DNA of 64,000 bases from Candidatus Omnitrophota bacterium (GTDB taxonomy: Bacteria > Omnitrophota > Omnitrophia > Omnitrophales > JACROU01), in the NCBI GenBank assembly GCA_029261035.1, contig JAJDCD010000008.1:162313-226312 (forward strand). Reading direction: 5' to 3'. Shown piece by piece: positions 4,356 through 57,147 of the stretch. The notes beneath the pieces are model-generated. The model had not been told where the DNA came from. It saw nothing but the letters and a program-made list of their open reading frames with translations, and did no database searches. The translations under genes were made by a program, and so were the position numbers. Each line of letters starts with the position of its first letter. Positions within the stretch are counted from its first letter, which is position 1.

Positions 4356-4386
4356 AAGGCTAACCTCCAAGTTGCTTTTAAAATTG

Positions 4387-18458: not shown

Positions 18459-18492
18459 GGAAAGAAGAGCCCTCGATGGCGCTCTTCTTTCC
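18459..18492. repeat. Perfect 12-bp stem hairpin (GGAAAGAAGAGC, 10-nt loop, GCTCTTCTTTCC) in the intra-operon spacer
   Basis: Read directly from the sequence. It is GC-rich relative to its surroundings. Confidence 0.5.
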
Positions 18493-18526
18493 AACGCTCC
18501 ACACTCCCATTTTACATTAAAGTCAT

Positions 18527-19751: not shown

Positions 19752-19757
19752 TCAAGT

Positions 19758-20501: not shown

Positions 20502-20508
20502 AAAACCC

Positions 20509-22014: not shown

Positions 22015-22522
22015 GAGATGAGTTTTTTAAGGTTAGTTGATGATAACGTTTTTTTAATGCAGAAGGAACAATCGGAAACAACAATCCATAAGGTTCTCCA
22101 CCAAATAAATGATGAATACGATGAGAATGATAATGCCAAGAGAAAATATTTTTCTTTATACGAAAAAATGGGATTCTTCCATGAACCACAATATCATGAA
22201 TTAAAAAGTAAAGAAGCCCATATGCTGTAATACCAAAACCGAAAGAAATTAAATATTTCAAACTCGGAACAAAAATACCTAAAGCAATAACAGACATAGT
22301 TATTAAAGCTGAAATTCCTGGATAAAAATCATTCAGCTCCCACCCATTGCTCTTAGGAGCAAAATTATGAATCAGCTTTTTCTGGCCTTCTCTTCGATTA
22401 TGACTCGAATGATGACTGCGATGTAAAGGAACGCCAAATCCATGGAAGATGTAGCGATGAGACAAATAGGTGATAGGCTCCATAACAACTAAACCTAAAA
22501 AGAACAAATAGACCTCAACCAT
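22007..22522 (-). CDS. crtZ: Beta-carotene hydroxylase (fatty acid hydroxylase superfamily)
   Basis: 171 aa with four histidine boxes (HRYIFHG, HRSHHSSH, HDIVVHG, HSHRIHH) and membrane helices. Confidence 0.7.
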   Translation of the reverse strand: MVEVYLFFLGLVVMEPITYLSHRYIFHGFGVPLHRSHHSSHNRREGQKKLIHNFAPKSNGWELNDFYPGISALITMSVIALGIFVPSLKYLISFGFGITAYGLLYFLIHDIVVHGRIPFFRIKKNIFSWHYHSHRIHHLFGGEPYGLLFPIVPSALKKRYHQLTLKNSSHE

Positions 22523-23404: not shown

Positions 23405-23430
23405 ATCTATGGATTACACTCCTATAAACT

Positions 23431-39265: not shown

Positions 39266-39817
39266 TTAAGAATTTACTTTTTCTTCTTGAATCCAACGTT
39301 CAATTTGAGAACGCTCGAACACCCAACCATCTTCTTCTAGGGTGGCAGGAATTTTCTTCTTACTTGCCCACTCTTCAACAACTTGCTCTTCCACTTCTAG
39401 AAAACCTGCTACATCTGCCACAGTCATATTATCAAAGTTAACTTCATTGGCTTTACTCGTACTCATAGCAACATTCCCATCTAGAATAGCCCCTTCTAAA
39501 CAACTGAAGATAGGAGCGCTAACATTTCCTTCAACACTTGCTGGAGCCGCCAAGGTTAAGCTGGTATATGCTGTGATATCTCCTGTTACTTTTCCTGCAA
39601 TGATAATTTTATCTCCTGTGATATTTGCTTTTACCTTTGCACTATCACCAATCGTTAAGATGCCACGCGTATCTAGTTTACCTTCAAAGGTTCCATTAAT
39701 TCTTAAGTTTACAGGATCTTTAAAAGTAATCGTACCTTGCATACTTGCATTTACATCAAGTATTTTTTCTTCAGATTCTTGATTATCCTTTTTTCTTGCC
39801 ATGGGAGGACCCTCCAT
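39266..39817 (-). CDS. Bactofilin (CcmA-like cytoskeletal protein)
   Basis: 183 aa. Beta-helical bactofilin repeat region (TFEGKLDTRGILTIGDSAKVKANITGDKIIIAGKVTGDITA...VEGNV). Confidence 0.7.
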   Translation of the reverse strand: MEGPPMARKKDNQESEEKILDVNASMQGTITFKDPVNLRINGTFEGKLDTRGILTIGDSAKVKANITGDKIIIAGKVTGDITAYTSLTLAAPASVEGNVSAPIFSCLEGAILDGNVAMSTSKANEVNFDNMTVADVAGFLEVEEQVVEEWASKKKIPATLEEDGWVFERSQIERWIQEEKVNS

Positions 39818-41104: not shown

Positions 41105-41443
41105 TTAACTCTTTTTTCTTTTATCTGATAGTTTCACACTTTGACTGATCCAACGCAAATACGATTCATCACCTTCACTCACATCTATCGCTAGAATCTC
41201 CGGAACGTCATAAGGATGAACTTGCTTCAAATACTTCATCAGTGCTTTCAATTTCGTCTGAGTTGTCTTTATGAACAAAAGAACTTCTGCAGAGCTCTCA
41301 ACTTTATTTTTCCACAAATAAAAGGATTGCCCCTTTGGAAAAGCATGAACACAGGCACATAAACGCTCCCTTAATAACTGCTTTGATACCTGCTCTGCTT
41401 TTTTCTGGTTAGGTAACGTGGAAAAGACGATTTTATACTTCAT
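41105..41443 (-). CDS. cutA: Divalent-cation tolerance protein CutA
   Basis: 112 aa. CVHAFPKGQSFYLWKNKV...HPYDVPEILAIDV is typical of CutA1. Confidence 0.75.
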   Translation of the reverse strand: MKYKIVFSTLPNQKKAEQVSKQLLRERLCACVHAFPKGQSFYLWKNKVESSAEVLLFIKTTQTKLKALMKYLKQVHPYDVPEILAIDVSEGDESYLRWISQSVKLSDKRKKS

Positions 41444-44243
41444 TTAATTTCTTTTTGTTAAGCATTTTAGCGAGAAATTGCCCCGTATACGAGCCTGCTG
41501 TTTGGGCAACTTTTTCAGGAGTCCCTTGAACCAAAAGCTTCCCGCCCTTATCTCCACCTTCAGGGCCTAAATCAATGACGTGATCCGCCATTTTAACCAC
41601 TTCCATGTTATGTTCGATAACAATAACAGTATTTCCAGACTCTCTTAATTCCAACAAAGCTTTTATTAGATGCGCTATATCTGCAAAATGCAGCCCTGTC
41701 GTTGGTTCATCCAACAAATAAAGAGTATTACCCGTTGATTTCTTTGATAACTCGCTAGCGAGTTTGATTCTCTGAGCTTCACCTCCAGATAAAGTCGTAG
41801 AGGACTGGCCCAGTTTTATATATCCCAACCCTATTTTTTCCAAAAGCTCCAATCGGTCTCTAATCATCGGTATAGCTTTAAAAAATGCTAAAGCCTCTGT
41901 AACCGACATAGCTAAAACTTCGGCTATGTTTTTACCCTTATAGGTAACTTGTAATGTTTGAGAGTTGTAACGATTTCCTACACATGTTTCACAAATAACA
42001 TACATATTAGGAAGAAAACTCATTTCTAATTTCTGAAAACCTTCCCCCTGACAATCTTCACATCGCCCACCTTTCAAATTAAAACTAAATCGACTTGCAG
42101 TAAAATTTCTTACTTTTGCTTCATTCGTATCCGCAAATAATTTACGAATAAATTGAAACAGATCTGTATACGTTGCTGGATTCGAACGGGGAGTTCTTCC
42201 AATAGGGGCTTGATCAATTTCGATCACTTTATCAATATGTTCTATACCTTCTATCTTTTTATACTTCCCAACAGGATAATGTGTTTTCCAAATATTATTA
42301 TGAATTGCTTTAAATAAAATATCATGAATCAATGTACTTTTTCCCGACCCAGAAACCCCCGTAACACATATAAAATGTCCTAAAGGAATTTTAACACTCG
42401 TATTTTTTAAATTATGCTCCTTAGCTCCCTTAATCGTAATAAAGTTTCTATTCCGTGTTGATTTTCTCTTTTTAGGTAAAGGAATCGTCAACTTTCCAGA
42501 CAAGTAATTACCGGTTAAAGAGGCTTCATGTTGGCACACTTCATCAATCGTTCCTTGAGCAATAACTTCACCCCCTTCTGTACCTGCCTTAGGACCCAAA
42601 TCCACAAGGTAATCTGCAGCTCTTATAGTTTCTTCATCATGCTCTACAACTACAATGGTATTCCGTAAATCACGTAAATGCTTTAAAGTAGAAAGTAAAC
42701 GATCATGGTCTCTTGGATGCAACCCAATGCTCGGCTCGTCCAAAACATACAGAACCCCGGTTAGACCAATTCCAATTTGAGCAGCTAACCGAATGCGTTG
42801 CAGCTCTCCTCCAGCCAACGTCGCCACAGAGCGATTTAAAGTTAAATAGCTTAACCCCACATTGTTTAAAAACTGAATACGATCTTTAATCTCTTTAAGA
42901 ATAGGCTCTGCAATCAACTGCTGAGCCCCTTCAAAAGATAATTCATCAAAAAACTCTTTTGCTAATTGAATCGACATAGAAGAAATTTCTTCAATATTTT
43001 TACCATTAATCTTAACAGCCAAACTTTCTTTCCTTAAACGACCTCCTTTACAATCATGACAGACATCCTCCACGATAAATTTTCTAATTTTATCTTTTAT
43101 TTTTTGAGAACCCGTTTTAAAAGAAAGTTCCTTTAACTCATCTAGCAGACCTGGAAAATCATCATTACCCCAAAAAAATGCATCTTGAACTTCTTGTTTC
43201 AACTCCTGAAACGGTTGATTCATGTCCGTTTTATAAAATTGCTTTATCTCCCAAACCAAATCTTGGATAAAGTAAGAATTAAAAGAGAAGAAAATATCTT
43301 CATTTAACCCTCCCTTCATTAAAGGCTTAGATGGGTCTGCAATTACAAGTTTGGAGACAATCTGAGAAATCCGTCCAATTCCTCGACATGTAGGGCATGC
43401 GCCGTAAGGACTATTAAAGGAAAACATATTAGGGTTCATTTCTCCATTACTAACACTAAATTCAGAATAGTTTTTAATATTAGAGAAAAAGAGCTCTTTA
43501 TCTTTACTTCCCTTCCTTTTTCTCACAGGCTCATAACGAACTAATGCGTTGCCCTTAGCAACTTCTAAGGCTAATTCCAAAGACTTTTGAATGCGCCCTC
43601 GAAACTGCTCTTTCACCATAAAAATATCGATCATAACATTAATATCATGGCGCTTGGTTTTGAGAAGTTTAATATCGTCTTCTAAAGAGCACATCTTTCC
43701 ATCAATTTTCATTTTGTTGAATCCACGTTTTTTTATCTCTTGAAGTTCTTTTTTAAATTCTCCTTTTCGACCTCGAACAATAGGTGCATAAAGCACAATT
43801 CGGGATCCCCTTGGAAACTTAAAAATCTGTTCAACCATTTCTTCAGGAGTTTCGCTCGCCAGAGGAGAATTGTCTTCATCAGAATAAACATCCCCTAATT
43901 TAGAAAAAAGTAATCTGAGAAAATCATACAACTCCGTCACGGTAGCCACAGTACTTCTTGGATTATGAGCAATGGAGCTTTGCTCAATGGAGATACTAGG
44001 GGAAAGACCAGAAATCTGATCTACTTCAGGTTTTTTTAATTTTTCAAGGAATTGTCGTGCATAGGAAGAAAAACATTCGATATATCTTCTTTGACCTTCA
44101 GCATAAATCGTATCAAAAGCAAGGGAAGACTTTCCTGATCCCGATAAGCCTGTAATCACAGTAATTTGATTTCGAGGAATATCCACATCTATATTTTTTA
44201 AATTATGTTCCCGCGCTCCACGCACTTGAATCATCGAAGACAT
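41433..44243 (-). CDS. uvrA: Excinuclease ABC subunit A
   Basis: 936 aa. Two ABC ATPase modules (GLSGSGKSSLAFDTIYAEGQRRY; GVSGSGKSTLIHDIL), zinc-finger Cys clusters, and LSGGE signatures. Confidence 0.95.
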   Translation of the reverse strand: MSSMIQVRGAREHNLKNIDVDIPRNQITVITGLSGSGKSSLAFDTIYAEGQRRYIECFSSYARQFLEKLKKPEVDQISGLSPSISIEQSSIAHNPRSTVATVTELYDFLRLLFSKLGDVYSDEDNSPLASETPEEMVEQIFKFPRGSRIVLYAPIVRGRKGEFKKELQEIKKRGFNKMKIDGKMCSLEDDIKLLKTKRHDINVMIDIFMVKEQFRGRIQKSLELALEVAKGNALVRYEPVRKRKGSKDKELFFSNIKNYSEFSVSNGEMNPNMFSFNSPYGACPTCRGIGRISQIVSKLVIADPSKPLMKGGLNEDIFFSFNSYFIQDLVWEIKQFYKTDMNQPFQELKQEVQDAFFWGNDDFPGLLDELKELSFKTGSQKIKDKIRKFIVEDVCHDCKGGRLRKESLAVKINGKNIEEISSMSIQLAKEFFDELSFEGAQQLIAEPILKEIKDRIQFLNNVGLSYLTLNRSVATLAGGELQRIRLAAQIGIGLTGVLYVLDEPSIGLHPRDHDRLLSTLKHLRDLRNTIVVVEHDEETIRAADYLVDLGPKAGTEGGEVIAQGTIDEVCQHEASLTGNYLSGKLTIPLPKKRKSTRNRNFITIKGAKEHNLKNTSVKIPLGHFICVTGVSGSGKSTLIHDILFKAIHNNIWKTHYPVGKYKKIEGIEHIDKVIEIDQAPIGRTPRSNPATYTDLFQFIRKLFADTNEAKVRNFTASRFSFNLKGGRCEDCQGEGFQKLEMSFLPNMYVICETCVGNRYNSQTLQVTYKGKNIAEVLAMSVTEALAFFKAIPMIRDRLELLEKIGLGYIKLGQSSTTLSGGEAQRIKLASELSKKSTGNTLYLLDEPTTGLHFADIAHLIKALLELRESGNTVIVIEHNMEVVKMADHVIDLGPEGGDKGGKLLVQGTPEKVAQTAGSYTGQFLAKMLNKKKLNEV

Positions 44244-44271
44244 ATTAACTCACAACTTTCTTAAAATAGGG

Positions 44272-45090
44272 CTATGTTCCAATTTTCATTTTAGAGAAAA
44301 TTTTATTTAATGTAGCTGCCAAAGAATACTGTGCCAAAGCACTCGTTTTAGGGTTATCTTTTGAGGGGACATTCTCTGTAAAGGTATTAATGCGTCCAAA
44401 CTTTCCTTCTGCTGTTATCTCATGAGAGTTCGCTGTAAACTCAGGAGAAGTCAATACTTTAACTTTAACTTGCTCAGGGCCTAGCGTTGCCAAAGAAAGA
44501 ACAGCTGCAACATTAACATTTTGAGGGAAAGCTTTAACTGCTTCAGTAGCTGTTCCTTCAAAAATCATTTGCTCTGTTTGAATAGAATCTAGGTCGATTC
44601 CCTTTTCTATTAAAAAAGGAGCTCCTCTTAACCCTTCAATAGGTTTCCTTGTTGTTAAAGTGATTCTTTCTATTCCTTCTTGCATAGCTGCATTCAATGC
44701 ATCAATACCCGCTACAGCTCCCGAGGGAACAAATACTTGCCCCACAGAATTAAATAACAAATCCTTTAAGGAAGGAACGTCTAAAATCCCACCCACACTC
44801 ATAACTAAAATAAGTTTTCCGCTTTGCAACGACTTCTCTAACAATTCTGGAACGCAAGAAACATGAGCGGCTTCAATAATTAAATCAACATCCTCTAAAT
44901 GCTCGTTCCAGCTAGAAATAACTTCAACGCCTTGAGTCAATTCTATTTTCAACTTATCTGCGGCATTTAAATTGATATCACAAACCCACTGAAGCTTAGC
45001 TTTATCACCATAGTCTCTTTCAACAAGTCGAGCGATGTAACTCCCAATAGAGCCACAACCCACTAAACCTATACGGACTATACCTGACAC
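44272..45090 (-). CDS. Aspartate dehydrogenase-like NAD(P)-binding protein (NadX/DUF108 family)
   Basis: 272 aa. N-terminal Rossmann fold IGLVGCGSIGSYIA and size fit L-aspartate dehydrogenase. It overlaps panD by 13 bp. Confidence 0.5.
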   Translation of the reverse strand: MSGIVRIGLVGCGSIGSYIARLVERDYGDKAKLQWVCDINLNAADKLKIELTQGVEVISSWNEHLEDVDLIIEAAHVSCVPELLEKSLQSGKLILVMSVGGILDVPSLKDLLFNSVGQVFVPSGAVAGIDALNAAMQEGIERITLTTRKPIEGLRGAPFLIEKGIDLDSIQTEQMIFEGTATEAVKAFPQNVNVAAVLSLATLGPEQVKVKVLTSPEFTANSHEITAEGKFGRINTFTENVPSKDNPKTSALAQYSLAATLNKIFSKMKIGT

Positions 45091-45461
45091 GAAACTGTCT
45101 CTTCTTCAGATATTTTCGTAATACGGTTCTTCTCATCCACTCGAACTACTTTTGGACGATGAGAATCTATTTCTTCTTTTGTAAGGAGAGCAAAAGAAAT
45201 AATAATAGCAATATCCCCTTCATTCGCATGATGAGCGGCCGCTCCATTCATACAAATGACACCAGAACCTCTAGGACCCGGAATGCAATAAGTTTCCAAA
45301 CGAGAACCATTCGTTACATTAGCAACCAAAACCTTTTCCCAGTGAGCCATACCAGAAGCATCCATCAGATCCTCATCAATAGTAATACTACCTTCATACT
45401 CTAGATTTGTTTCTGTAATGGTTACACGGTGAATTTTAGAATTTAGTAATTGACGTTGCAT
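45078..45461 (-). CDS. panD: Aspartate 1-decarboxylase proenzyme
   Basis: 127 aa. LNSKIHRVTITETNLEYEGSITIDEDLMDASG (Gly-Ser self-cleavage site) and GSGVICMNGAAA. Confidence 0.9.
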   Translation of the reverse strand: MQRQLLNSKIHRVTITETNLEYEGSITIDEDLMDASGMAHWEKVLVANVTNGSRLETYCIPGPRGSGVICMNGAAAHHANEGDIAIIISFALLTKEEIDSHRPKVVRVDEKNRITKISEEETVSCQV

Positions 45462-45485
45462 GGTTTAAACAACCTCCAAATTAAT

Positions 45486-46328
45486 TTATTTTTTTATTAC
45501 TCGGTTATCTATCAGTCTTGTTTTTCCTAAAGTACAAGCTATTCCAAGTAAAATATCTCCAGTCACTTGTTTTATATTTTCCAAACTTTCAAGATCTAAT
45601 ATTTCAACATACTGGATTTTATCGACTACAGGCTCCAAAGATTTCTGAATATCTTTCTTCAACTGAGCCACATTCGTTTCTCCAGAACGGATCAACTGTT
45701 CTGCATATTCTAATGCCAGATAGATCATAGGCGCTTTTGCTCTTTGTAATTCGCTCAAATAGGCATTTCTAGAGCTCATCGCCAAACCATCCATCTCACG
45801 GATCGTTGGCAAAACTTCTAAGGCTAGGGGCATATTCAGATCCTTAACCATACGCTTCAAAATCACAGCTTGCTGATAATCCTTTTGCCCAAAATAGGCT
45901 TTTGTAGGCCGAACTAAATTAAATAATTTTGCAACAACAGTACAAACCCCATCAAAATGCCCTGCGCGAAACTGCCCACATAATCGCAGCCCTAACTTCC
46001 CTGCCTTTACTTCAGTCTGAAATCCTTTAGGATACATTTCAGTCACTTTTGGTAAAAAAAGAATATCTGCCTTTTCTTTCTTTAACAAACGTTCATCTTG
46101 AGCTAAGGTTCGCGGATATTTTTTAAAATCTTCTTTAGGACCAAATTGAGTTGGATTTACAAAAACACTAACAACAACTCGCTTATTCTTTTTTCTGGCA
46201 GTACGGACCAACGACAAGTGCCCTTCATGCAAAGCCCCCATTGTTGGGACAAAACCAATAGAGTGTGATTGTTTAGCTTGTCTCAAAGACCATGCTGTCA
46301 TTTCACTCAAAGAAACAATTTTTTTCAT
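45486..46328 (-). CDS. panC: Pantoate--beta-alanine ligase
   Basis: 280 aa. HIGH-like motif PTMGALHEGHLSLV. Confidence 0.85.
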   Translation of the reverse strand: MKKIVSLSEMTAWSLRQAKQSHSIGFVPTMGALHEGHLSLVRTARKKNKRVVVSVFVNPTQFGPKEDFKKYPRTLAQDERLLKKEKADILFLPKVTEMYPKGFQTEVKAGKLGLRLCGQFRAGHFDGVCTVVAKLFNLVRPTKAYFGQKDYQQAVILKRMVKDLNMPLALEVLPTIREMDGLAMSSRNAYLSELQRAKAPMIYLALEYAEQLIRSGETNVAQLKKDIQKSLEPVVDKIQYVEILDLESLENIKQVTGDILLGIACTLGKTRLIDNRVIKK

Positions 46329-46852
46329 TACACAGTCACTGGGGATTCAACGTTTTCTTTTTGCTTTTGAATAAATTCTTGAAGCTGAACATCCCCTAAC
46401 AAATCAATCAACAACTCCTGTACTGATTTCTTTGTTTTTGGATGAACCCAATCTTCATTGCATTCGTGCAAAGGTTTTAAAACAAATTCTCTCTGCTCAA
46501 TTCGAGGATGAGGTAACATCAACTCATCTTCCTCAATAACCTCTTCGTCATAGCAAAGCAAATCCAAATCTAAAGTCCTCGGTCCATTTTTCTCGACTCG
46601 TTTTCTGCCCAAACCCAATTCAATTCTCTGCAAATGACTTAATAACTCGAAGGCGCTAACTTCAGATTCCACCACCCAAACAGCATTCAAGTAAAGTCCT
46701 TGAGCAGGACCTCCATGAGGAAGAGTTTCGTAAATTGAAGACTCTTTCTTCCACGTTACACCAGGTATAGCCTTTATCTGATCTCTCGCTTTTTGAATGT
46801 ATTGCAGTCGATCCCCTAAATTAGAACCAACACCAATATAAGCTGTGGACAT
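46328..46852 (-). CDS. folK: 2-amino-4-hydroxy-6-hydroxymethyldihydropteridine pyrophosphokinase (HPPK)
   Basis: 174 aa. AYIGVGSNLGD N-terminus and RTLDLDLL. Confidence 0.85.
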   Translation of the reverse strand: MSTAYIGVGSNLGDRLQYIQKARDQIKAIPGVTWKKESSIYETLPHGGPAQGLYLNAVWVVESEVSAFELLSHLQRIELGLGRKRVEKNGPRTLDLDLLCYDEEVIEEDELMLPHPRIEQREFVLKPLHECNEDWVHPKTKKSVQELLIDLLGDVQLQEFIQKQKENVESPVTV

Positions 46853-46876
46853 AAGCAGCTTCCCTCATCTATATTT

Positions 46877-48049
46877 CTATTTTAAATTTTTAATACGCTC
46901 TACTGCTTCCTGCAACTTCTCTTTAGCCACCGTAACAGAAAAACGAATAAAACCTTCCCCATTCGGTCCAAATCCGTTTCCTGGGGTAACAACAATACCT
47001 GCATCTTTAAGTAACTTTGTTGTTAGCTCTGCACTGGTATAACCTGATGGAACTTTAGTCCAAATATAAAATGTTGCTTTAGGTTTATTAACTTTCCAGC
47101 CTATACTTTCAAGACCATCAACTAAAATATCTCTTCTTTCTTGATAAATATCAATATTATCTTGGACTGCTTGGTCACCCTCTTTCAAGGCTGTTGTTGC
47201 TGCTACTTGAATCGCCTGAAAAATTCCAGAATCACAATTCGCCTTCACCTTAGCAAGCAATTTCAAGATTTCTGGATTTCCAACAGCAAAACCAACACGC
47301 CATCCTGTCATATTGTATGTCTTAGAAAGAGAATGAAATTCAATCCCTACTTCTTTAGCACCTTTTGCTTGTAAAAAGCTAACAGGTTTATATCCATCAT
47401 AAGCCATTTCGGTATACGCCGCATCCTGAGCCACAATAATGTCATGCTCTTTCGCAAACTGAACAACCTCTTCATAAAACTCAAGAGTGGCACATGCCGC
47501 GGTTGGATTATTTGGGTAATTTAAAAACATCAATTTCGCTTGCTTCAATGCTGCAGGATCTATTGCTGAAAAATCAGGTAAAAAACCTTTTTCTTCAACC
47601 AAAGGAATCGTACTTGTTTCTGCTCCTGCAAAATAAGAAGCTGAATGATAAACTGGGTAACCAGGATCCGGAACTAACACAACATCTCCAGGGTTTACAA
47701 CAGCCAATGGGAGATGAGCAATTCCCTCTTTAGAACCAATCAAAGGTAATATCTCATTTTGAGTATCTACAGAAACACCAAAACGTCTTTGAAACCAAGA
47801 TGCAATTTCTTCTCTAAAGGAAGGCATCCCTGCATCAAGAGCATAACGATGATTCTTTGGGTCCTTAGCACCCTCATAAAGAGAATCAATAATAAAGTTA
47901 GGTGTTGGAATATCAGGGTCTCCCACGCCAAGATCAATAATATCAACACCCTGATCTCTAGCCTCTCTCTTAAGACGGTCAATCTCTGCAAATAAATAAG
48001 GGGGCAATTTCTTAATTCTGTCTGCTGCTTCAATAGTCAAAGTGGTCAT
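46877..48049 (-). CDS. Class-I aminotransferase, LL-diaminopimelate aminotransferase (DapL)-like
   Basis: 390 aa. N-terminus KLPPYLFAEIDRLKRE...IIDLGVGDPD and PLP-lysine region SLSKTYNMTGWRVGF. Confidence 0.55.
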   Translation of the reverse strand: MTTLTIEAADRIKKLPPYLFAEIDRLKREARDQGVDIIDLGVGDPDIPTPNFIIDSLYEGAKDPKNHRYALDAGMPSFREEIASWFQRRFGVSVDTQNEILPLIGSKEGIAHLPLAVVNPGDVVLVPDPGYPVYHSASYFAGAETSTIPLVEEKGFLPDFSAIDPAALKQAKLMFLNYPNNPTAACATLEFYEEVVQFAKEHDIIVAQDAAYTEMAYDGYKPVSFLQAKGAKEVGIEFHSLSKTYNMTGWRVGFAVGNPEILKLLAKVKANCDSGIFQAIQVAATTALKEGDQAVQDNIDIYQERRDILVDGLESIGWKVNKPKATFYIWTKVPSGYTSAELTTKLLKDAGIVVTPGNGFGPNGEGFIRFSVTVAKEKLQEAVERIKNLK

Positions 48050-48241: not shown

Positions 48242-51200
48242 TTAGGCTGCTATAAGGACCTTACGCATATTCTGCCATTCCTGAACAAGGTCTTGAAGAA
48301 TCTGAGGCAATAACAGTAAGGTGTTAGAATCACGGTCTCTTTGAAATAATTCCAGCAAAGCAGATCTGTTTTGAGCGACATAGAAAGAAGCTGCTAGATA
48401 AGCTCCACGATAATCAGAATCACGGCTAAATTTTTCTGCCTCAAACTGAATTCTTAAATCGCCTTCTTCCCAGTCTGCGGTGTTAAAAGAGTCATTCAAA
48501 AATACAGACTCTGCTAAATTAATTCCATTTGGAAAGTAAGGTCTTAAAAAGAACATCGATTTTTCTAAAAGGGCTTCAACATCTTTTGATAACATCTGTG
48601 TCATAGGTCGTTTCCACAAAAGAAGGGCAACCCGATAATCTTTCCAAAGACGCATCACACCTCCATACTCTCGAGCAATATCCGATATCTGATTTTTATC
48701 TGAAACTAAAAACACAACCATATTCGCTTTATTACCATCCCGCACATCCTCATCTCTTCGAGTTAACTCTTGTAATACTCCTTCTGTATTCGAATTCAAC
48801 TCCATAAAAATCGGAGTAAGATTTCTTTGCTCTTGAACAGAGTGAAGAATTACTTGAGCTTGCCCCAAACTTTGTCCTGTTGCAGCCGCTGCTTGTCCTG
48901 CATTCGAAAGCTGCCTTGAAATTTGTTGAAGCAGCATAGCCGTATGGTCTTGTGGGGTCCCAAACCCTAGAACACTCACATTCCTAAAGGAGTCAGAAGC
49001 TGTTTGAAAACGTGCGCGAACAGTACTGTTTCTTCTACCCACCAAAACATGCCGCCATCTTCCTGTTACAGCAAGAGCAAAGTTTAGATATGCTTTTTCT
49101 TCTTCTATCTTACTTGCTGCTAGAGCCGTTCGCACTTGTGTTCCTGTCATCTCTTCAGCAGCAGCATTTGCTCCGGTAATAATAAAAGAGTATCTAGCCG
49201 GAATCACTCTTCCAGACAGTTTCTCTGTCTTAAATATTTCAAGACCTCGAAACCAGTTTTTAGCGCGTAACAAACTTACTTGTTGCAAATTCTCATCAAC
49301 AATATCTCTTTCATCATTAATCCTCAAATCATAGTTAAGCGCTTTAAGAAAATGATGTTCTAAAGACATCCAAATACGAGCATCAGAAACTCCTGAGTAA
49401 TCGTTCTGATTAGAACTTCTAACTTTAGACCAAACAACTCTCATTTGTTGAAAAGCTCTTTCTGCTAATTCATTCGCTTCATTTGACCCCGTTTTATATA
49501 TATTAAAAGCCCTCTGGTCTGTTCTTAGTGCCTGTTCATCAATACTAGGAATATCAGACCACTTTGCATAAGCTTCTAACAAGTTAATATCCGCCAACAC
49601 CTTTAATGCTTGTATTTCAGCAAAACCTGCTGGGGTATTCACATCCCCCACAAATCCAATTCCACCTCTTGCTATTTGCTCACCAGACCCTGTTTTAATG
49701 ATTCTAATTTGAGCATCTGTTGCTCCCATACTTTTCATCCACTGCTCTATACGAGTTCGAGCTCCATCAAAATTATTATCCGCAGCTAAATAATACGCTT
49801 CCATAGGATAAGCTTTCTGAACCCAAGTAGATTGAGGATAAGCCGTCCTCAATGACTGCAACTCCGAAAGTGCTGTAGCATACTCACCGTTATATGCCGA
49901 TAAATGGGCTATTGCCCACAAATATTCTTGATGTTCTGCTGGAGTCAGTTGTTTGATTTCATTTTCAGTAGCTAGATTTTTAAGCGCTCTCACTTGCTCT
50001 AAATAATCATCAAGAGTTAAGTCGGATCTTAGTTTTTTCAGTAACGCTAATTTCACTTTAACGTGATAAAACCTAAGAAAAGAAAGATAAGCTCTATCTG
50101 AATGCACTGAAAAATGATTGCTAAATTGCCTATCAAAGCTTGTTAATGCATCCTTGTTAATAGAAGCATCCTCCAAGCCTTGTTTAACTAAAATCAAAAA
50201 TGAAACTAACCCTCTCAATTGTCGAACTTTTGTCTCAAGAGTTGTATCTTTTCCAATTAATTTATCTGACGCCTGATCTAACAAGTTTTTTGCATCTGCC
50301 CATTCCCCTGATTTAATTTTAACCTCAGCCTGAGCAATCAAAGCCCTACCTTCTTCAATTTGAGAGGCTCTTCTCTGTCTTTGAGCATCTAAAGCAATAC
50401 GCGCTTGATACTTCCTCCAACCTTCTGTTATCAAGTAAAACGCAGCCCCTCCAAGTAAAACAACAGACAGTAATGCCCCTAACACTAACTGCCCTCGTCT
50501 TTTTCTTAGACTTCTTTTTCTTTTATCTTTCTGCGCTTCCACATTACGATTTTCAAGAAAATTTTCAAGATCTTCTGCTAATTCAACAGCCGAAGGATAT
50601 CTACTCTCTTCACTTTTTTCCATCGTCTTAATAATTATTTCTTCTAAGTCTTTAGGTATTGCCGGGTTAATTTCACTAGGCCTTTTAAAATCATTAAGCA
50701 TAATTGCTGACATAAGCATTAAGGAAGAACTCGCAGTAAAAGGAAGCTGCCCCGTTAACATGTAATACAAAATAGCTCCTAACGCCCAAACATCGGTAGG
50801 TGCCTTTGCATCCCTAGCCAAACCCGTTGCTTGTTCTGGAGACATAAATGATGGAGTTCCTATGACAGCTCCTGTTCTTGTTAACTCCTCAGCTCTGGCC
50901 TTTGATGTCAACTTCGCCAAACCAAAATCTGTAACATAAGGAACACTCCCTTCCCCTAAAAGGATATTTTGAGGTTTTAGATCTCGATGAATAAAATCTC
51001 TTTTATGCACCCTTGCCATAGCTTCAACAATTTGTTTAAACAACACCGTTCTATCTCTAATAAGCTTCTCAGCTTCTTTTGATTTAGGTTTACTTGGAAT
51101 AATTTCCCCCTGATCTATCCACCGTCTTATTTGCTCTTCTAAATCCCCGCCCTCGACAAACTCCATAACAAAAAAGGGCTCTTCCTTGCCCTCTCTTAAT

Positions 51201-54200
51201 CGAACGTTGCCTACTGCGTAAATTTTAACAACTCCCATAAAATCTAGCTGTACCATTGATTCAGCTTCTTCTTTGAAACGTAACATTTCCTCAGCACCTG
51301 CGTGTTCAAGAAGTCGTTTTATTGCTACTTTTCTTCCTGTTTTAGATGCCCTAAAGTCCAACCCTTGGTACACAGCTCCCATACCCCCCTTAGCTAAAAA
51401 CTTCGTAATTCTAAACCTCCCTGCTTGTTGCTGATTAAATAAACGGACAAATCCATCCGTCTGCTGTAAATAAAGTGTATCTGGATCAACAGGACTCATC
51501 TTTGCCATTAACTTAGGTGAAACATCCCCAGGCTGAAGCCCTACTTGAGTTCTCCCTTCAGCAACCGTACCTCCAGACAAACTAGGAGAGACCACAGAAG
51601 TAGGCGCTCTCGCTATTACCATCCGATAGGATCTTCCATTAACATTGACATAAAAATCAGGATTCAAACCATTCGCATCCAGAACAATAAAAGGAGGATC
51701 AATGTTAGGCTTACTCCACTTCTCATTATTCTCAAAGGTCTGAAAATAGAATTGAAAAGTAGTTCCATTTAAAGGGATGGGTACAAAATATTGCGCTTGG
51801 ATGAAAGCTTGTTGAGCCTGTTGCAATAGAGAGACAACAGGACCTTTATTCAAAGCCGCATAAGCTTGACGATATTGCTCCAAGATTTCAACTGCTGTCT
51901 CAACAGGTTTATCTCCTAAACTCTGCGCTTCAACAGATCCTTCTTCTCTCCAAACTGTTAATAGATCTCCCATTAAATTCACATCATTAAATTGATCGGC
52001 AGCTTCTGCAAAAGCTGCTCCCTGAGTCGCTTTTTGCACCCAGCCTCTAAAACGTTTTACGCGCGCGGATGTTGGAATACCAGAAGTTAAATCAACTCTT
52101 CTCTGACGAATCACCCGCCCCAATAGTTGAAAGTAAGTTTTAGGATCACTCGATAACTCTTCATCTCCCTTTACCGTTCTTAACAACAATCGAATATCAG
52201 AAAGTCTTTCTTTATTTTCATCACTCAGTTGATTAAAACTACTTAACAAGCGTCCTAATTGCCGACTGGAGTTAGAAGCTATATTCGATTGCTCTCTTGC
52301 CCCATTAGACAAGTTGCCCAAATCACCCATTAAGGCCTCAATGCCGATAGAATAATCAAGCCCTGCCAAAAATGCTAAACGTAAATTTCTGATTTGAGCA
52401 GGGTTATTTGAATTTCCAGAGGATTGAATAATGGCTAAAATACTAGCCTGTAATGACTGAGAGTAATAATCTTCTATTTGTCGAGAAAGCTCCCTTTTCT
52501 TACCATACAAAGCTCCCAGTTCAGAGCTTGGATGCCCTTGTCCTGGAGTCCAACTTCCAGATCGACCATCAGGTTCTAAAATTTGTCTATAACGTCTCAT
52601 AGTAATCAACTGCTCAAGAACATATGTATCTAAAATAGCGCGTCTTAGTTTTAAACGATTCACTGGATCTGAATTTTGCAAATCAACCGCCTGTAAACCT
52701 TGACGTGCAGTTTCAAATTGAGCATTTTCCCCACCAATTGCTTTCATCAGTCTAATTCGAGCTATAAGTAAATGAGAAGAAGTCATCAAATTAGAAGATG
52801 CAAATCGAGATTGGAAATCCGACAGAGTTGTCAATGAAGCATCCAAACTTCCCATTCGATATTGGATAGTCGCTTTCTTCCAAGTATTAGCTTCATTCGT
52901 AGCATTTGCTGAATTAGAAATTTCTCGCAGAGCCAAAGCATACATATGGTTGGATAATGAAACATTGTTTTTTTCACCAGGCAACCTCAAAAGAAAACCC
53001 AGGCTTTCAAATAAACTAATTTTATCTGTGCCCGTTGTTCCTTGAAACAAATCAGAAGAAGAGAAATCTGATGATGATGGCCTGGTTGATTGAGTTAATA
53101 AAAATGATAGTCGATCAGCTATTAAACTTAACACACCTTCATTTAAACCTTTATTTAATTGAACAGACTGACTTGACTTGGATAACAAAATACGAGCAAG
53201 ACGATTAAAACGAGTTTTATCGGTATCATTTAAATCACCATATCGACTCGCAACTATATTTAAATCATTGAACGCTTGAGAAATATCGGGACTCTGTTTT
53301 TTTAACTCAGTATCTGCTGACTTAAAATTTACGCCAATTTGCTGAGTTCTTAAAGATGTGATTACTTCTTGAACCCTTGCTTTTAACGCAGCAGAAAATA
53401 GAGGCACTTCTTTAAAAGTATCTATCAAGGCTAAAATACGACTTACATCCGCAGGACGAGCAGAGTCTCCCTTTTTAATCTCTGCATCTGCTTGCTGCAA
53501 CGCCGTAACTAACTGTCTCATACTTAAAACCTTCGCATCTAACCGAGGCCTTTCTCCAGAATTAATACTTCGAGCATCATCAATTAGTTTTATTGCATCA
53601 TCATACCTTCTATCCAAAATTGCTTGTTCTGCATCATTAATATGATCTGCTTTTAACGTTAACTCTTGATTCCTTTGATAGTCCTTATACATAGAGCTCC
53701 CAATAGAAAAAGCGCCTAACATAGCTAGAGTAACAATTGCAGCTGCCAAGATTCCCGCAACAGCTTTATTTCTCTGAATTAACTTTTGTAATCGATAAAA
53801 AAGACCTTGGTTTTTAACTGCTTGAACAGGTTGGTTATTCAACCAACGGTCTAAATCGTCTGCCAACTCACTTGCAGATTGATAACGATCTGAAGGTTGC
53901 TTTTCTAATGCTTTTAAAATAATTGCTTCGATTTCTTTTGAAACCTTAGAGTTTTGACTTCGAATTGGAGTTGGATTCTGCATTGAAATAGCAGTTAAAA
54001 CAGCCGTCAATGAAGGCCCTGAAAATGGATACTCTTTGGTTAAAGACTTATAAAGCATTCCCCCTAAAGCCCAAACATCTATGCGATGATCAATTTCTGT
54101 AGATTTATTAATTTGTTCGGGAGCCATGTAAACAGGTGTTCCCAATATATCTCCTGTTCGAGTTAAAGCTTCTTCACTATTCACTAAATGCGCTAAACCG

Positions 54201-56818
54201 AAATCAGCAATCTTAGTAGAACCATCATTAGCAATAATCACATTAGCAGGTTTTAAATCACGATGGATCACCCCTGCTTTATGAGCCTTATCTAAAGATC
54301 GTGCAACATCTCTAATAATCCGAACTCTTTCTCTTAACACTTCATCTGATGTTGGAACAGGAGATTCCATAATCACATCCCTAAAATCTTCACCTTCAAC
54401 AATGTCCATTGCATAGAAAGGCCTAAGACCATATTGAGGATGTTGAACTTGTCCAATAAATCGAGATTGAACAATTCCGGGGTCATTTACTTGAGCCGCC
54501 GCTTGTGCTTCTCGTTTAAAACGAATAAACGACTCTGCATCGATAGCAGCTTCAAATGGAATCACTTTTACAGCTGATTGCCTTGGAGTTCCTGGGATTC
54601 TCAAATCCACCGCTTCATAAACAACCCCCATAGCTCCTCTTCCCAACTCTCGTATTAATCTAAACTGAGGTACCTGTTGAGAAAACAACTGAACCATCGC
54701 ATCTCCCGATGGAGGCAATTCGCTTTGATTTAAAGGAAGAGTTCCAGTTCCTTGTCTTTCTGTTCTACTTACAGAGTCTGCAGCAACCTGCACATCCGTG
54801 ATTGCCGTCAATTTAAAATGATAACCATCGATAGTCACATGATTCGTTCTAGGATCCTGTCGCAACAAAATATCTTGAACTTGCCTACCTGGTTGAATTT
54901 GAGGAGACTTCCAAGTGTTACCTTGGTAAATCTGAACAATAAAATCCATTACTTGACCTTGGAAGTTAATTCTAAACGGCTGACCTAATGGATCAATTGA
55001 TTCTCTATTTCGTCGATCTCTTACATTGCGAACCAACTCTTGCATAACCTCCATCCAAAAAGCATCTTGCATATTTTGGCCATAAGTCATGATGATTTTT
55101 TCAAACATGACATCACGAGAATCACTTTCAATGCCCAAAGATGCAGCCACAGCTTCTGGAACATCATAGTACGGCAAAGCTCCGATTTGAGTTGCCGCAG
55201 CTTCCAGCTTGAATGCAGGATCATCTAACCGAGGCTCTAATTTAACCGTTCCTGTTGCTGGATTTATAATTTGATTTAAAGACACTTCTTGCTTAGCCAA
55301 CAATTCCCAATACGGAGATGTGTCCCAATCAGGATCCGCAATCGGTGTCATCACCCAATAAGAAATATCTTTGTCTTTTAACCGCTTCGCAATCCCTTCG
55401 GTATGGAAACCACCTGCAACAACAAAAATAATTTTCTGCTTGGTGTTTTTTAATAGTTTTTCGATGTTTTGGGATAATGCTTCATCCCTTTTGTAAACAT
55501 ATTCATAATATTGAAAAGCAGAAGACATTAAAGAAATCATACGAAGCATTACAGGGTCACTTCTAAAAGTAAAACCTCGACGTTCAAATAGGTCATCTAA
55601 GGACTGCCACCAAACCTTTGTTTGGATAATATCCATACGAGACATCAGCTCTTGATAGTGCTTGTTCTCTAATTCCAAACGAGACAACTTGTCTAAAAGC
55701 ATAAAGTCTCGATCCACCTGAATCAGCATTCTTTCGTCACGAGAACGAGCTAGAAGTGGGTAAAGCTTCTTTTCTAAGCGCTCTAATTGCTCAAAAAAGT
55801 CACTCGATGCCAATACATCCATTTCTTTTTGAAACTTGATCCAACGAGCAAAAACCTTATTTTCATTTTTAAGACCTTCTGACTGTTGATTCCAAAAAGA
55901 ATTTACTCTTAGCATCCATTGAGATTCTGGTTCGTCAACACCTCTGATCATCCCCCATTCGCTCAAAAGTGCTTTAATTCGTTTTTGATCTAATTTACTC
56001 TCCTCTTGAAACAATAGAGACATTTGCTCAATTGCTGGATACAGATTTAAACTTACTCCCTTTTCTGTAGATAGTTGAATTAAAAGCCTTAGATAGACTC
56101 TTAACTGATTTACATCTTTTTCAAATTGGTCTTTAATTTGTTCTACATCTCGAAGTTGTTTGGAGTAGACTTGATTTTTAAGGCGGTTTACTTCTAATTT
56201 CGTATTTTCTATGGCTTTAACAACTGAAAACTGATGGTCTAAAAAGGAGCGATAGGCACTCACATTTTTCTGGTACAAATTCTTACTATCAATCCCCCAC
56301 AATTTAGCTTTTCGATTATTGTTTATTGCGTAATACTGGGCACCATCAATCTTGCCATCCCACATAAAAGAGTTCGTAACATCTCGGGTAATTTCCGGAA
56401 CAGGAAAAGCGGTGAAAATCAAAGGGTTAATTTCTTCCGGACCACTTCCTTCAAGACCAATCGTAATCTCTTCAGAAAGCCCCATAGAAACAAGCTTGTC
56501 TTCAAAGTAATCCAGTGTAGAAATAATATTTTGTTGGGCTTGAAAATTGGCATGAGCTTCTTGCAACAAAACCACAAGAGGATAGTCCCCTAAAGGTTTT
56601 TCTTCTGTCTCCGGAGACATCCAGAAAGATTCTCTATCGACTATCTCATTAGATAACCCACTCAAAAAAGATTGAGGAGAAACTAAAGTAGGAGCACCCA
56701 TCATCGGGTTTGCTTTTGCAGGTAAAGGTATAAATACGGAAGTAACAACAAAGCAAATCAGAACGACTAAAGATGTAAAGAATTGAAAACTCTTATGCTT
56801 CAAAATTAAAACCTCCAT
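48242..56818 (-). CDS. Giant (2858 aa) membrane protein: N-terminal hydrophobic segment, TraB/GumN-like domain, then two tandem Ser/Thr protein kinase modules, each followed by a TM segment and a long helical (TPR-like) region
   Basis: GumN/TraB motifs LVVLLQEAHAN (aa ~81-91) and IIFVVAGGFHTEGI (aa ~463-476). Kinase 1 (aa ~718-985): GRGAMGVV, AVKVI, HRDLKPANV, DFG, YMAPE, DVWALG. TM 2 (aa ~1019-1043). Kinase 2 (aa ~1801-2085): AKGGMGAV, VAIKRL, HRDLKPQN, DFG, FMSPE, DVWALG. TM 3 (aa ~2110-2130). Confidence 0.85.
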   Translation of the reverse strand: MEVLILKHKSFQFFTSLVVLICFVVTSVFIPLPAKANPMMGAPTLVSPQSFLSGLSNEIVDRESFWMSPETEEKPLGDYPLVVLLQEAHANFQAQQNIISTLDYFEDKLVSMGLSEEITIGLEGSGPEEINPLIFTAFPVPEITRDVTNSFMWDGKIDGAQYYAINNNRKAKLWGIDSKNLYQKNVSAYRSFLDHQFSVVKAIENTKLEVNRLKNQVYSKQLRDVEQIKDQFEKDVNQLRVYLRLLIQLSTEKGVSLNLYPAIEQMSLLFQEESKLDQKRIKALLSEWGMIRGVDEPESQWMLRVNSFWNQQSEGLKNENKVFARWIKFQKEMDVLASSDFFEQLERLEKKLYPLLARSRDERMLIQVDRDFMLLDKLSRLELENKHYQELMSRMDIIQTKVWWQSLDDLFERRGFTFRSDPVMLRMISLMSSAFQYYEYVYKRDEALSQNIEKLLKNTKQKIIFVVAGGFHTEGIAKRLKDKDISYWVMTPIADPDWDTSPYWELLAKQEVSLNQIINPATGTVKLEPRLDDPAFKLEAAATQIGALPYYDVPEAVAASLGIESDSRDVMFEKIIMTYGQNMQDAFWMEVMQELVRNVRDRRNRESIDPLGQPFRINFQGQVMDFIVQIYQGNTWKSPQIQPGRQVQDILLRQDPRTNHVTIDGYHFKLTAITDVQVAADSVSRTERQGTGTLPLNQSELPPSGDAMVQLFSQQVPQFRLIRELGRGAMGVVYEAVDLRIPGTPRQSAVKVIPFEAAIDAESFIRFKREAQAAAQVNDPGIVQSRFIGQVQHPQYGLRPFYAMDIVEGEDFRDVIMESPVPTSDEVLRERVRIIRDVARSLDKAHKAGVIHRDLKPANVIIANDGSTKIADFGLAHLVNSEEALTRTGDILGTPVYMAPEQINKSTEIDHRIDVWALGGMLYKSLTKEYPFSGPSLTAVLTAISMQNPTPIRSQNSKVSKEIEAIILKALEKQPSDRYQSASELADDLDRWLNNQPVQAVKNQGLFYRLQKLIQRNKAVAGILAAAIVTLAMLGAFSIGSSMYKDYQRNQELTLKADHINDAEQAILDRRYDDAIKLIDDARSINSGERPRLDAKVLSMRQLVTALQQADAEIKKGDSARPADVSRILALIDTFKEVPLFSAALKARVQEVITSLRTQQIGVNFKSADTELKKQSPDISQAFNDLNIVASRYGDLNDTDKTRFNRLARILLSKSSQSVQLNKGLNEGVLSLIADRLSFLLTQSTRPSSSDFSSSDLFQGTTGTDKISLFESLGFLLRLPGEKNNVSLSNHMYALALREISNSANATNEANTWKKATIQYRMGSLDASLTTLSDFQSRFASSNLMTSSHLLIARIRLMKAIGGENAQFETARQGLQAVDLQNSDPVNRLKLRRAILDTYVLEQLITMRRYRQILEPDGRSGSWTPGQGHPSSELGALYGKKRELSRQIEDYYSQSLQASILAIIQSSGNSNNPAQIRNLRLAFLAGLDYSIGIEALMGDLGNLSNGAREQSNIASNSSRQLGRLLSSFNQLSDENKERLSDIRLLLRTVKGDEELSSDPKTYFQLLGRVIRQRRVDLTSGIPTSARVKRFRGWVQKATQGAAFAEAADQFNDVNLMGDLLTVWREEGSVEAQSLGDKPVETAVEILEQYRQAYAALNKGPVVSLLQQAQQAFIQAQYFVPIPLNGTTFQFYFQTFENNEKWSKPNIDPPFIVLDANGLNPDFYVNVNGRSYRMVIARAPTSVVSPSLSGGTVAEGRTQVGLQPGDVSPKLMAKMSPVDPDTLYLQQTDGFVRLFNQQQAGRFRITKFLAKGGMGAVYQGLDFRASKTGRKVAIKRLLEHAGAEEMLRFKEEAESMVQLDFMGVVKIYAVGNVRLREGKEEPFFVMEFVEGGDLEEQIRRWIDQGEIIPSKPKSKEAEKLIRDRTVLFKQIVEAMARVHKRDFIHRDLKPQNILLGEGSVPYVTDFGLAKLTSKARAEELTRTGAVIGTPSFMSPEQATGLARDAKAPTDVWALGAILYYMLTGQLPFTASSSLMLMSAIMLNDFKRPSEINPAIPKDLEEIIIKTMEKSEESRYPSAVELAEDLENFLENRNVEAQKDKRKRSLRKRRGQLVLGALLSVVLLGGAAFYLITEGWRKYQARIALDAQRQRRASQIEEGRALIAQAEVKIKSGEWADAKNLLDQASDKLIGKDTTLETKVRQLRGLVSFLILVKQGLEDASINKDALTSFDRQFSNHFSVHSDRAYLSFLRFYHVKVKLALLKKLRSDLTLDDYLEQVRALKNLATENEIKQLTPAEHQEYLWAIAHLSAYNGEYATALSELQSLRTAYPQSTWVQKAYPMEAYYLAADNNFDGARTRIEQWMKSMGATDAQIRIIKTGSGEQIARGGIGFVGDVNTPAGFAEIQALKVLADINLLEAYAKWSDIPSIDEQALRTDQRAFNIYKTGSNEANELAERAFQQMRVVWSKVRSSNQNDYSGVSDARIWMSLEHHFLKALNYDLRINDERDIVDENLQQVSLLRAKNWFRGLEIFKTEKLSGRVIPARYSFIITGANAAAEEMTGTQVRTALAASKIEEEKAYLNFALAVTGRWRHVLVGRRNSTVRARFQTASDSFRNVSVLGFGTPQDHTAMLLQQISRQLSNAGQAAAATGQSLGQAQVILHSVQEQRNLTPIFMELNSNTEGVLQELTRRDEDVRDGNKANMVVFLVSDKNQISDIAREYGGVMRLWKDYRVALLLWKRPMTQMLSKDVEALLEKSMFFLRPYFPNGINLAESVFLNDSFNTADWEEGDLRIQFEAEKFSRDSDYRGAYLAASFYVAQNRSALLELFQRDRDSNTLLLLPQILQDLVQEWQNMRKVLIAA

Positions 56819-57147
56819 AACCCCTTAGATTTGAACATAATAAAGAAGTTATATTAAGTTGTAAAAAAGCTTACAAACAAAGCACTTAACGTTGTTTTCA
56901 ATATAAAAGTATAGCACAGAGGCTACTATTTACCTATGCAAGGCCCCCACAAGAAGCCTAAGTCGTTTAAATTCAATTAGATAGGGGTATATAAAATTAA
57001 CTCTTCCAGATAAACGAATTAGAAGGAAATAGGAATTAGGTTGTTGGCCCACGAACCAGACAAAACACTGCGCTATCGCTTCGTAGTCGGTACGGGGCAC
57101 ATATCCGCTAAAATTTGCATGGCTATGCCATGCTGACATGTAGTATA

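Follow-up and report, generated by a model that had tools for sequence, protein, structure and literature searches.

Bacterial receptor Ser/Thr kinases are described with one kinase per chain. Here, we describe a gene conserved with two intact units, P0001, which lies on the minus strand of a 64,000-nucleotide stretch of Candidatus Omnitrophota DNA (contig JAJDCD010000008.1; this whole stretch is referred to as the window) and encodes a protein of 2,858 amino acids (aa). The protein is a member of a very small, syntenically conserved family, composed of a signal peptide, an N-terminal domain (N-domain) of predicted TIKI/ChaN fold, a varying number of cassettes, and a conserved C-terminal domain. 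Each cassette of P0001 comprises, in this order, a linker, a helical hairpin, a small beta domain, a low-complexity linker, a Hanks-type kinase, one transmembrane (TM) helix, and a helical region of 500 to 600 aa. We consider this family membership, the cassette layout, an old internal tandem duplication, and a conflict in membrane topology to be, taken together, the likely explanation of the gene. The open reading frame (ORF) and its cassettes are laid out in the window as follows.

48242..56818, minus strand: whole ORF P0001, 2,858 aa plus stop codon
55133..55141, minus strand: junction motif 1, aa 560-562 (A-A-S-L-G)
51923..55141, minus strand: cassette 1, aa 560-1632 (self-alignment, profiles, hhalign)
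54794..54979, minus strand: pre-kinase beta domain 1, aa 614-675, preceded by the helical hairpin at aa 565-604
53804..54667, minus strand: kinase 1 (Pkinase), aa 718-1005; G-loop, AVK Lys, Glu, HRDLKPAN, DFG, and APE all kept
53708..53764, minus strand: TM helix 1, aa 1019-1037; Kyte-Doolittle (KD) value 2.35, four K/R on the N flank and two on the C flank
51923..53707, minus strand: helical region 1, aa 1038-1632
51914..51922, minus strand: junction motif 2, aa 1633-1635 (A-Q-S-L-G)
48872..51922, minus strand: cassette 2, aa 1633-2649 (self-alignment, profiles, hhalign)
51608..51802, minus strand: pre-kinase beta domain 2, aa 1673-1737
50519..51418, minus strand: kinase 2 (Pkinase), aa 1801-2100; G-loop, VAIK, Glu, HRDLKPQN, DFG, and SPE all kept
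50429..50485, minus strand: TM helix 2, aa 2112-2130; KD 2.36, nine K/R on the N flank and three on the C flank
48872..50428, minus strand: helical region 2, aa 2131-2649, with weak TPR/BamD-like matches at aa 2297-2362
48863..48871, minus strand: junction motif 3, aa 2650-2652 (G-Q-S-L-G)

Homology between the two cassettes

The original prediction, which spanned 50429-54991 (aa 610-2130) and quoted four peptides starting at aa 614, 1686, 1063, and 2154, held that a whole module of pre-kinase domain, kinase, TM helix, and helical region is doubled within one ORF, and named a self-alignment confined to the kinase cores as the outcome that would speak against it. BLASTP of aa 1-1660 against aa 1661-2858 returned one colinear high-scoring segment pair (HSP), aligning 617-1107 with 1681-2208 at 30% identity over 540 columns (E 3e-57). 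Since most of this score derives from the kinases, the flanks were compared on their own, and similarity was found there as well. The pre-kinase segments aligned with z = 4.0, a score reached by 8 of 2,000 shuffles, and the 80 juxtamembrane residues following each TM helix with z = 5.5, only one of 2,000 shuffles scoring as high. In this pairwise comparison of cassettes 1 and 2, the remaining, distal helical regions showed no similarity.

Profiles extended these results. A linker-to-beta-domain profile built from seven cassettes of other proteins, with the query excluded, matched P0001 at aa 556-678 (independent E value 3.5e-12, score 33.3) and at aa 1635-1741 (independent E value 3.1e-5, score 10.8), the best score among 300 whole-protein shuffles being 3.4. 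When an alignment of cassette-1-type post-TM regions, including that of P0004, was compared by hhalign with one of cassette-2-type regions, the distal helical regions matched over 269 colinear columns (aa 1305-1598 versus 2291-2608; E 1.6e-4), with reversed controls at E 0.55-0.74. Plain BLAST also matched the region after TM helix 1 of the query to the region after the second TM helix of P0003 (E 1.8e-5). At the DNA level, the remnant of the repeat is one 54-nucleotide, 70%-identical trace at the activation loops, with a spacing of 3,282 nucleotides. Judged by these alignments, the full unit from Ser-Leu-Gly (SLG) to SLG (aa 560-1632 and 1633-2649) is present twice by way of an old internal tandem duplication, which bears out the proposed homology of the pre-kinase segments, the kinases, and the post-TM regions, weak as the signal is outside the kinases.

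Both kinases are recognized by the Pfam model Pkinase (PF00069; 269 bits against a gathering cutoff of 31.7) at aa 720-981 and 1804-2082; in the remainder of the 2,858-aa protein, Pfam yielded only the faint TPR/BamD-like matches. Kinase 1 displays the motifs GRGAMGVV, AVK, KRE, HRDLKPAN, DFG, and APE, and kinase 2 the motifs AKGGMGAV, VAIK, KEE, HRDLKPQN, DFG, and SPE. All seven kinases of the family keep the Gly-rich loop, the VAIK Lys, the alpha-C Glu, HRDxKxxN, D(F/L)G, and (A/S)PE, the single deviation being DLG for DFG in P2_K1. As every catalytic motif is kept, both query kinases are probably active phosphotransferases.

Identity in a trimmed alignment is 36% between the two query kinases and 28-44% between orthologous pairs. 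A bootstrapped neighbor-joining tree grouped Q_K2 with P2_K2 (90%) and P2_K1 with P3_K1 (99%); the latter two share an insert of about 24 aa before DFG, which Q_K1 lacks. A kinase phylogeny had been proposed as a way to date the duplication, and in part it served this purpose: the identity level and the Q_K2/P2_K2 grouping suggest that the duplication is older than the split of the three double-cassette genomes, but the deep nodes did not resolve. Some observations weigh against a simple duplication history. The distance tree is not resolved at depth, Q_K1 stands apart from P2_K1 and P3_K1, and the kinases may have a more complex history, e.g., re-duplication or conversion. Furthermore, beyond the kinases, the two copies show weak similarity (z 4-5.5 in pairwise comparison and E 1e-4 to 1e-5 with profiles), with no more than five family proteins to draw on.

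Upstream of each kinase, the cassettes carry a domain that the original prediction took to be possibly FHA- or PEGA-like. Neither identity held, as no resemblance to FHA or PEGA domains was found by profile or fold. An AlphaFold2 (AF2) model of aa 556-700 (9-row alignment; predicted local distance difference test score [pLDDT], 75.5; predicted template modeling score [pTM], 0.65) places a six-stranded beta domain at aa 615-675, behind the helical hairpin at aa 565-604. The pre-kinase domain is specific to the family. It also occurs in the kinase-less cassettes of P0005, and therefore it is not kinase-specific despite its position in P0001.

Relatives, synteny, and cassette number

A full-length search of a 5.8-billion-protein database returned only four close relatives. 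P0002 (3,431 aa) and P0003 (2,797 aa) have two kinase cassettes each. P0004 (1,698 aa), from a Candidatus Omnitrophota metagenome-assembled genome (MAG), has a single cassette, flanked by the same N- and C-terminal domains, and P0005 (1,952 aa), from the same MAG, is a kinase-less paralogue with two cassettes. In the window and at the loci L001, L003, and L004, which between them carry P0002 (L003), P0003, and P0004, the gene lies directly upstream of an identical six-gene block encoding a class I/II aminotransferase, HPPK, panC, panD, aspartate dehydrogenase, and uvrA (41433..48049, minus strand, in the window). This common block identifies the query, P0002, P0003, and P0004 as positional orthologues.

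Synteny also bears on how the second cassette arose. Cassette number varies in one orthologous gene, which argues for internal duplication, or loss of one copy, over fusion of two neighboring receptor-kinase genes. Such a fusion would readily account for two complete kinase-TM-sensor units in series and for kinases diverged like paralogues (36% identity). However, in P0004, which occupies the same place on the chromosome, a single cassette is already framed by the N-domain and the C-terminal domain, no stand-alone gene for a cassette of this family turned up in the searches run, and P0005 duplicated the unit independently, in tandem, within the gene, and from SLG to SLG. We thus favor internal duplication and regard gene fusion as improbable.

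The same comparison speaks to an artefact of assembly or gene calling that joined two genes, a concern raised by the protein being a singleton cluster on one metagenome-derived contig. The 8.6-kb frame is open throughout, however, and the two-cassette architecture recurs with the same neighbors in two other independent assemblies; similarity to P0002 is colinear over query residues 639-2183 in one HSP, with another HSP covering 2295-2653. An artefact is therefore extremely improbable.

The double-cassette architecture is genuinely rare. Only two other double-cassette proteins were found in the 5.8-billion-protein search and in metagenome and genome scans, in line with the earlier suggestion that two receptor-kinase units in one polypeptide are unusual. 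Beyond the known loci, scans of JGI metagenomes and GTDB species representatives with N-domain patterns retrieved only distant paralogues of the N-domain, all of them in Omnitrophota MAGs. With the inter-kinase region (aa 1038-1800) as query, an exhaustive phmmer search of 1.84 billion representatives found P0002 as the sole relative. The same query drew no match, its parent protein included, from the word-indexed 5.8-billion-protein database, in which the search seems to prefer proteins close in length to the query. A search with cassette 2 found ordinary kinases only, at 28-36% query coverage, and no stand-alone cassette-like gene. A single-sequence search for related loci with the C-terminal domain gave no match. 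Tandem kinases as such occur elsewhere in bacteria, as in the metagenomic bacterial proteins P0007, P0023, and P0064 (1.6-2.3 thousand aa), each with two kinase-domain matches and without the cassette flanks.

The cassettes of P0005 (aa 492-1124 and 1111-1748) follow the order SLG, hairpin, beta domain, linker, TM helix, and helical region, as in the kinase cassettes. They are 47% identical overall, 96% over the first 100 aligned columns, and 31-63% beyond, which suggests recent partial gene conversion between them (L005, 8001-13859). On this evidence, the cassette unit is mobile. The post-TM regions of P0005 have no profile similarity to those of the kinase-bearing cassettes (E 0.7), and therefore the homology of its cassettes is carried by the SLG, the hairpin, and the beta domain only. 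The post-TM region of P0004 resembles the cassette-1 regions (E 8e-5) and not the cassette-2 regions (E 0.25). The gene for P0005 is flanked by genes for proteins of 14,531 and 3,664 aa, both truncated. P0002 (L003) contains two additional elements: an extra copy of the small beta domain at aa 605-638, before cassette 1, whose junction is without SLG, and an SLG-bounded segment of about 283 aa (aa 2932-3214) before the C-terminal domain.

Boundary motif and membrane topology

Alignment of the regions upstream of the kinases brought to light a Ser-Leu-Gly at the module boundaries. Across the five family proteins (12,736 residues in total), there are exactly 14 instances of the pattern [AG]-x-S-L-G, all of them at junctions, whether between N-domain and cassette, between two cassettes, or between cassette and C-terminal domain. 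The pattern is found at 560, 1633, and 2650 in the query; 1810, 2932, and 3215 in P0002; 546, 1568, and 2597 in P0003; 494 and 1491 in P0004; and 503, 1122, and 1746 in P0005. Plain SLG is found 17 times in these proteins against 5.3 expected (Poisson P 4e-5). In the AF2 model of aa 556-700, the tripeptide falls in a low-confidence stretch ahead of the helical hairpin. Given that the surrounding sequence is otherwise 20-30% identical, the constancy of this tripeptide within a flexible linker suggests a short functional motif and not a piece of a structural core. We also considered SLG as a general feature of large proteins with the N-domain and rejected this, the tripeptide occurring at background frequency (4.4e-4) and in no common context in 31 others.

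Kyte-Doolittle hydropathy identified exactly three strong hydrophobic segments (KD >1.3) in P0001, at aa 14-32, 1019-1037, and 2112-2130. A search by hydropathy for a hidden TM helix between TM helix 1 and kinase 2 found none, the next-best window having a KD of 1.25 and three charged residues. The five family proteins have nine internal TM helices in all, of which eight have an excess of K/R on the N-terminal, kinase-facing flank (for example, 9 versus 3 and 6 versus 2) and one has a tie; by the positive-inside rule, each internal helix is an N-in/C-out anchor. Taken alone, a single cassette would have the ordinary layout of a bacterial receptor kinase, with a cytoplasmic kinase, an N-in/C-out anchor, and a helical sensor outside. 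Since consecutive helices must alternate and no further hydrophobic segment is present, however, the kinases of an uncut chain end up on opposite membrane sides, regardless of how the N-terminal signal behaves. The gene hence poses a dilemma: either receptor kinases are made as a polyprotein, or an intact kinase is kept outside the cytoplasm. Cleavage of the precursor at the SLG linkers, or an extracytoplasmic location of one kinase, would resolve this, and we propose that one or the other applies.

Of these two, we lean slightly, and tentatively, towards a precursor that is cut at the invariant SLG linkers and whose pieces insert independently. Cleavage would occur in sequence predicted to be flexible, and independent insertion of the pieces would yield two separate receptor kinases with different sensor regions. 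SLG processing is favored because it would explain why the motif is invariant, why the charge bias is uniform, why cassette number varies freely, and why every kinase keeps its catalytic residues. It is tempting to go further and to speculate that the [AG]-x-SLG linkers are processing sites of a bacterial polyprotein, a somewhat doubtful proposal drawn from sequence patterns. Its products would be an exported TIKI-fold hydrolase, two independent receptor Ser/Thr kinases, and the C-terminal domain, and duplication from SLG to SLG would drive the evolution of cassette number (0, 1, or 2 kinases). If true, SLG processing would be the first defined cleavage and module grammar for Omnitrophota giant proteins.

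Several points weigh against processing and against the topology from which it follows. The topology itself comes from Kyte-Doolittle hydropathy and K/R counts only. A signal peptide would put the N-domain, and kinase 1 if the chain is uncut, outside the cytoplasm. No protease has been linked to SLG, and the junction before cassette 1 of P0002 is without the SLG motif. The N-domain is present in many giants that are without the motif, and therefore it is not a dedicated SLG protease.

An uncut chain that crosses the membrane at both TM helices, leaving the kinases on opposite sides with only one of them exposed to cytoplasmic ATP, is a possibility that we take seriously without committing to it. 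The other kinase might then serve as a scaffold or pseudo-sensor, or be active in a compartment outside the cytoplasm that contains ATP. For one ORF with three hydrophobic segments, no reading is simpler, and cytoplasm-type enzymes to either side of the membrane are also predicted in published surveys of Omnitrophota giant proteins. On the other hand, both kinases are catalytically complete in all three double-cassette orthologues, arguing for access of both to ATP, both TM helices bear the N-in charge bias, and the conserved C-terminal domain would come to lie on different sides in one- and two-cassette orthologues.

Terminal domains, genomic context, and known systems

Outside the cassettes, the following features were assigned.

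56837..56865, minus strand: sigma-70-like promoter match, TTTACA-17-TATTAT (10/12), directly upstream of the ATG; a consensus match only
56711..56818, minus strand: Sec-type signal peptide or anchor, aa 1-36; basic n-region, hydrophobic stretch 14-32, A-K-A before Asn37
55142..56710, minus strand: N-domain, aa 37-559; predicted TIKI/ChaN/TraB/erythromycin-esterase fold with a large helical insert; conserved E87-x-H89, E123, R444, and GGFH469-472
48245..48871, minus strand: C-terminal domain, aa 2650-2858; conserved, ending in an invariant Ala-Ala

The N-domain gave no sequence match to any Pfam or PDB family, a profile search against PDB returning noise. An AF2 model of aa 36-545 (17 rows; pLDDT, 84; pTM, 0.75) shows an alpha/beta core that is interrupted by about 280 aa of helical insert, and its tabulated values against known structures were 9.9 for ChaN, 9.3 for the Ere-like 2rad, 9.2 for TraB, 8.9 for both EreC and HopBA1, 7.2 for PMT, and 7.1 for RRSP. 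According to this model, the N-domain adopts the TIKI/ChaN/TraB/erythromycin-esterase fold, a parallel beta-sheet core flanked by helices, and differs from other members of this superfamily by the insert that splits the core. E/D87-x-H89, E123, and H472 show little or no variation across 17-36 sequences, and R444 and G469-G-F-H472 are also conserved. In a pattern-level comparison, the spacing of E/D87-x-H89, E123, and H472 resembles that in RRSP and Bcr135. A 2His/2Glu site is essential in the site-specific endopeptidase RRSP and shared with Ere esterases (PMC6254334). The conserved residues of the N-domain thus appear to follow the 2His/2Glu pattern found in active hydrolases of the TIKI superfamily, a group that includes site-specific endopeptidases.

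The N-domain occurs at the N-termini of P0002-P0005, of P0012-P0065, and at loci L008-L022, and heads at least 36 Omnitrophota-type proteins. About 36 proteins of 1.7-4.9 thousand aa, from Omnitrophota, Auribacterota, and one Elusimicrobia-labelled MAG, have query residues 10-520 alone in common with P0001. Their other domains are unrelated enzymes, including PEP-utilising, HAD, RelA/SpoT, phosphoglucomutase, DnaJ, and methyltransferase domains. Two N-domain genes (3894-5282 and 10598-12163) lie about 6.7 kb apart on one Omnitrophota contig (L013), from which it follows that genomes contain several members of the N-domain family; P0004 and P0005, too, come from a single MAG. Together, the boundary motif and the shared TIKI-fold N-domain provide a starting point for understanding the construction of the long Omnitrophota proteins, and suggest cut points for structure prediction and peptides to seek in proteomes.

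All 36 N-domain proteins inspected begin with Sec-type signal peptides (basic n-region, hydrophobic core, AxA-like end), and several of them have no other hydrophobic segment yet carry cytoplasm-type enzymes. These properties would fit an exported effector, in which the whole protein is delivered to another cell, where the kinases meet ATP and the helices insert in the target membrane. Omnitrophota have been proposed to be predators or parasites, and TIKI-fold domains occur in the bacterial toxins or effectors RRSP, PMT, and HopBA1. Since there are no secretion-system genes near the gene, its neighbors are housekeeping genes, and its core-genome synteny is conserved, we hold such export to be unlikely. 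A related option, that the hydrophobic segments do not span the membrane of the producing cell, shares with export the remaining probability.

Conservation of the C-terminal 209 aa extends to all five family proteins, and no relative was found among PDB sequences, the profile search returning noise only. All five proteins end in Ala-Ala (…VLIAA, …VLVAA, or …LETAA; codons 48245-48250 in the query). These terminal residues recall the non-polar C-terminal tails read by tail-specific or Clp proteases.

In the 64-kb window, all ORFs of at least 120 aa are on the minus strand, save two short ones overlapping larger genes, and the GC skew is negative in 32 of 32 2-kb windows; this strand bias is unusually uniform. 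Housekeeping neighbors include secA, a prfA-like release factor gene, uvrC, murJ, holA, lptE, comEC, leuS, greA, surE, and pntB, and no PP2C phosphatase, FHA protein, or secretion system adjoins the gene. Elsewhere in the window, 16288-25799 holds a carotenoid-type cluster (carotenoid synthesis protein, GT2, acyltransferase, two CrtI-like oxidoreductases, polyprenyl synthase, and phytoene/squalene synthase), and 39266-39817 encodes a 183-aa protein with a bactofilin domain and a C-terminal HTH_17 DNA-binding domain.

A kinase followed by a C-terminal TM helix is the commonest architecture of bacterial Ser/Thr kinases (STKs) (10.1101/2025.01.12.632604), and a two-unit kinase-TM-sensor architecture is absent from the conserved architectures presented in the main text of that preprint. 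Like bacterial Hanks-type receptor STKs of the PknB-like and TPR-bearing kinds, each query cassette has an intact Pkinase domain, one N-in-biased TM helix, and a long C-terminal region with a weak TPR-like signal. In contrast to the canonical receptor STK, which is one kinase unit with a cytoplasmic N-terminus, P0001 has two units behind a Sec signal and a 520-aa N-domain, and it differs further by the family-specific hairpin and beta domain before each kinase and by the conserved C-terminal domain. No PASTA, FHA, or PEGA domains were found in the protein. Assignment to the PknB/Stk1 PASTA kinases (NF033483) was rejected, as the score of 480 passes the threshold of 450 only as the sum of two kinases, the best stretch covers 9-279 of 563 model positions, and Pfam gave no PASTA match at E <= 1; automatic annotation could misname the protein as a Stk1 family PASTA kinase. 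The defense-system kinases MADS6 (264.7 versus 460) and BREX PglW (107.9 versus 990; both NCBIfam) were likewise dismissed, the similarity being to the kinase domain only.

Omnitrophota giant proteins are predicted to have cytoplasm-type enzymes on both sides of the membrane, and their cleavage is suspected, with no known sites (10.1101/2023.11.21.568195, 10.64898/2026.06.07.730766). A term search of these two preprints came upon neither a TIKI/ChaN-type domain shared at the N-terminus nor known cleavage sites. P0001 comes from the same phylum and has in common with these giants, including the 'Archaeovorins', signal peptides, scattered TM helices, and cytoplasm-type enzymes. 'Archaeovorins', however, have at least 30,000 aa, many TM helices, and an N-terminal C39 or S8 peptidase, compared with 2,858 aa and three hydrophobic segments in P0001; membership was rejected by size and by the absence of a peptidase Pfam match. 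From other Omnitrophota giants, P0001 differs by a defined repeated cassette with a conserved boundary motif.

In MARTX and large clostridial toxins, an internal cysteine protease domain (CPD) cuts inter-domain linkers at Leu and a small residue. No CPD-like domain or RTX repeats were detected in P0001, so that the likeness is one of logic and not of membership. Eukaryotic two-kinase proteins (JAKs, RSK/MSK, obscurin/SPEG, UNC-89, and plant TKPs) also have two duplicated or fused kinases per chain, but they are soluble or hold both kinases on the same side, and one is often a pseudokinase, whereas in P0001 a TM helix follows each kinase and both are intact. Each half of P0001 is a genuine Hanks-type kinase with the usual layout of a receptor, and the whole protein fits no described architecture. 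The duplication itself is an ordinary evolutionary event; what sets this protein apart is the conserved two-kinase chain, its defined boundary, and the topology conflict.

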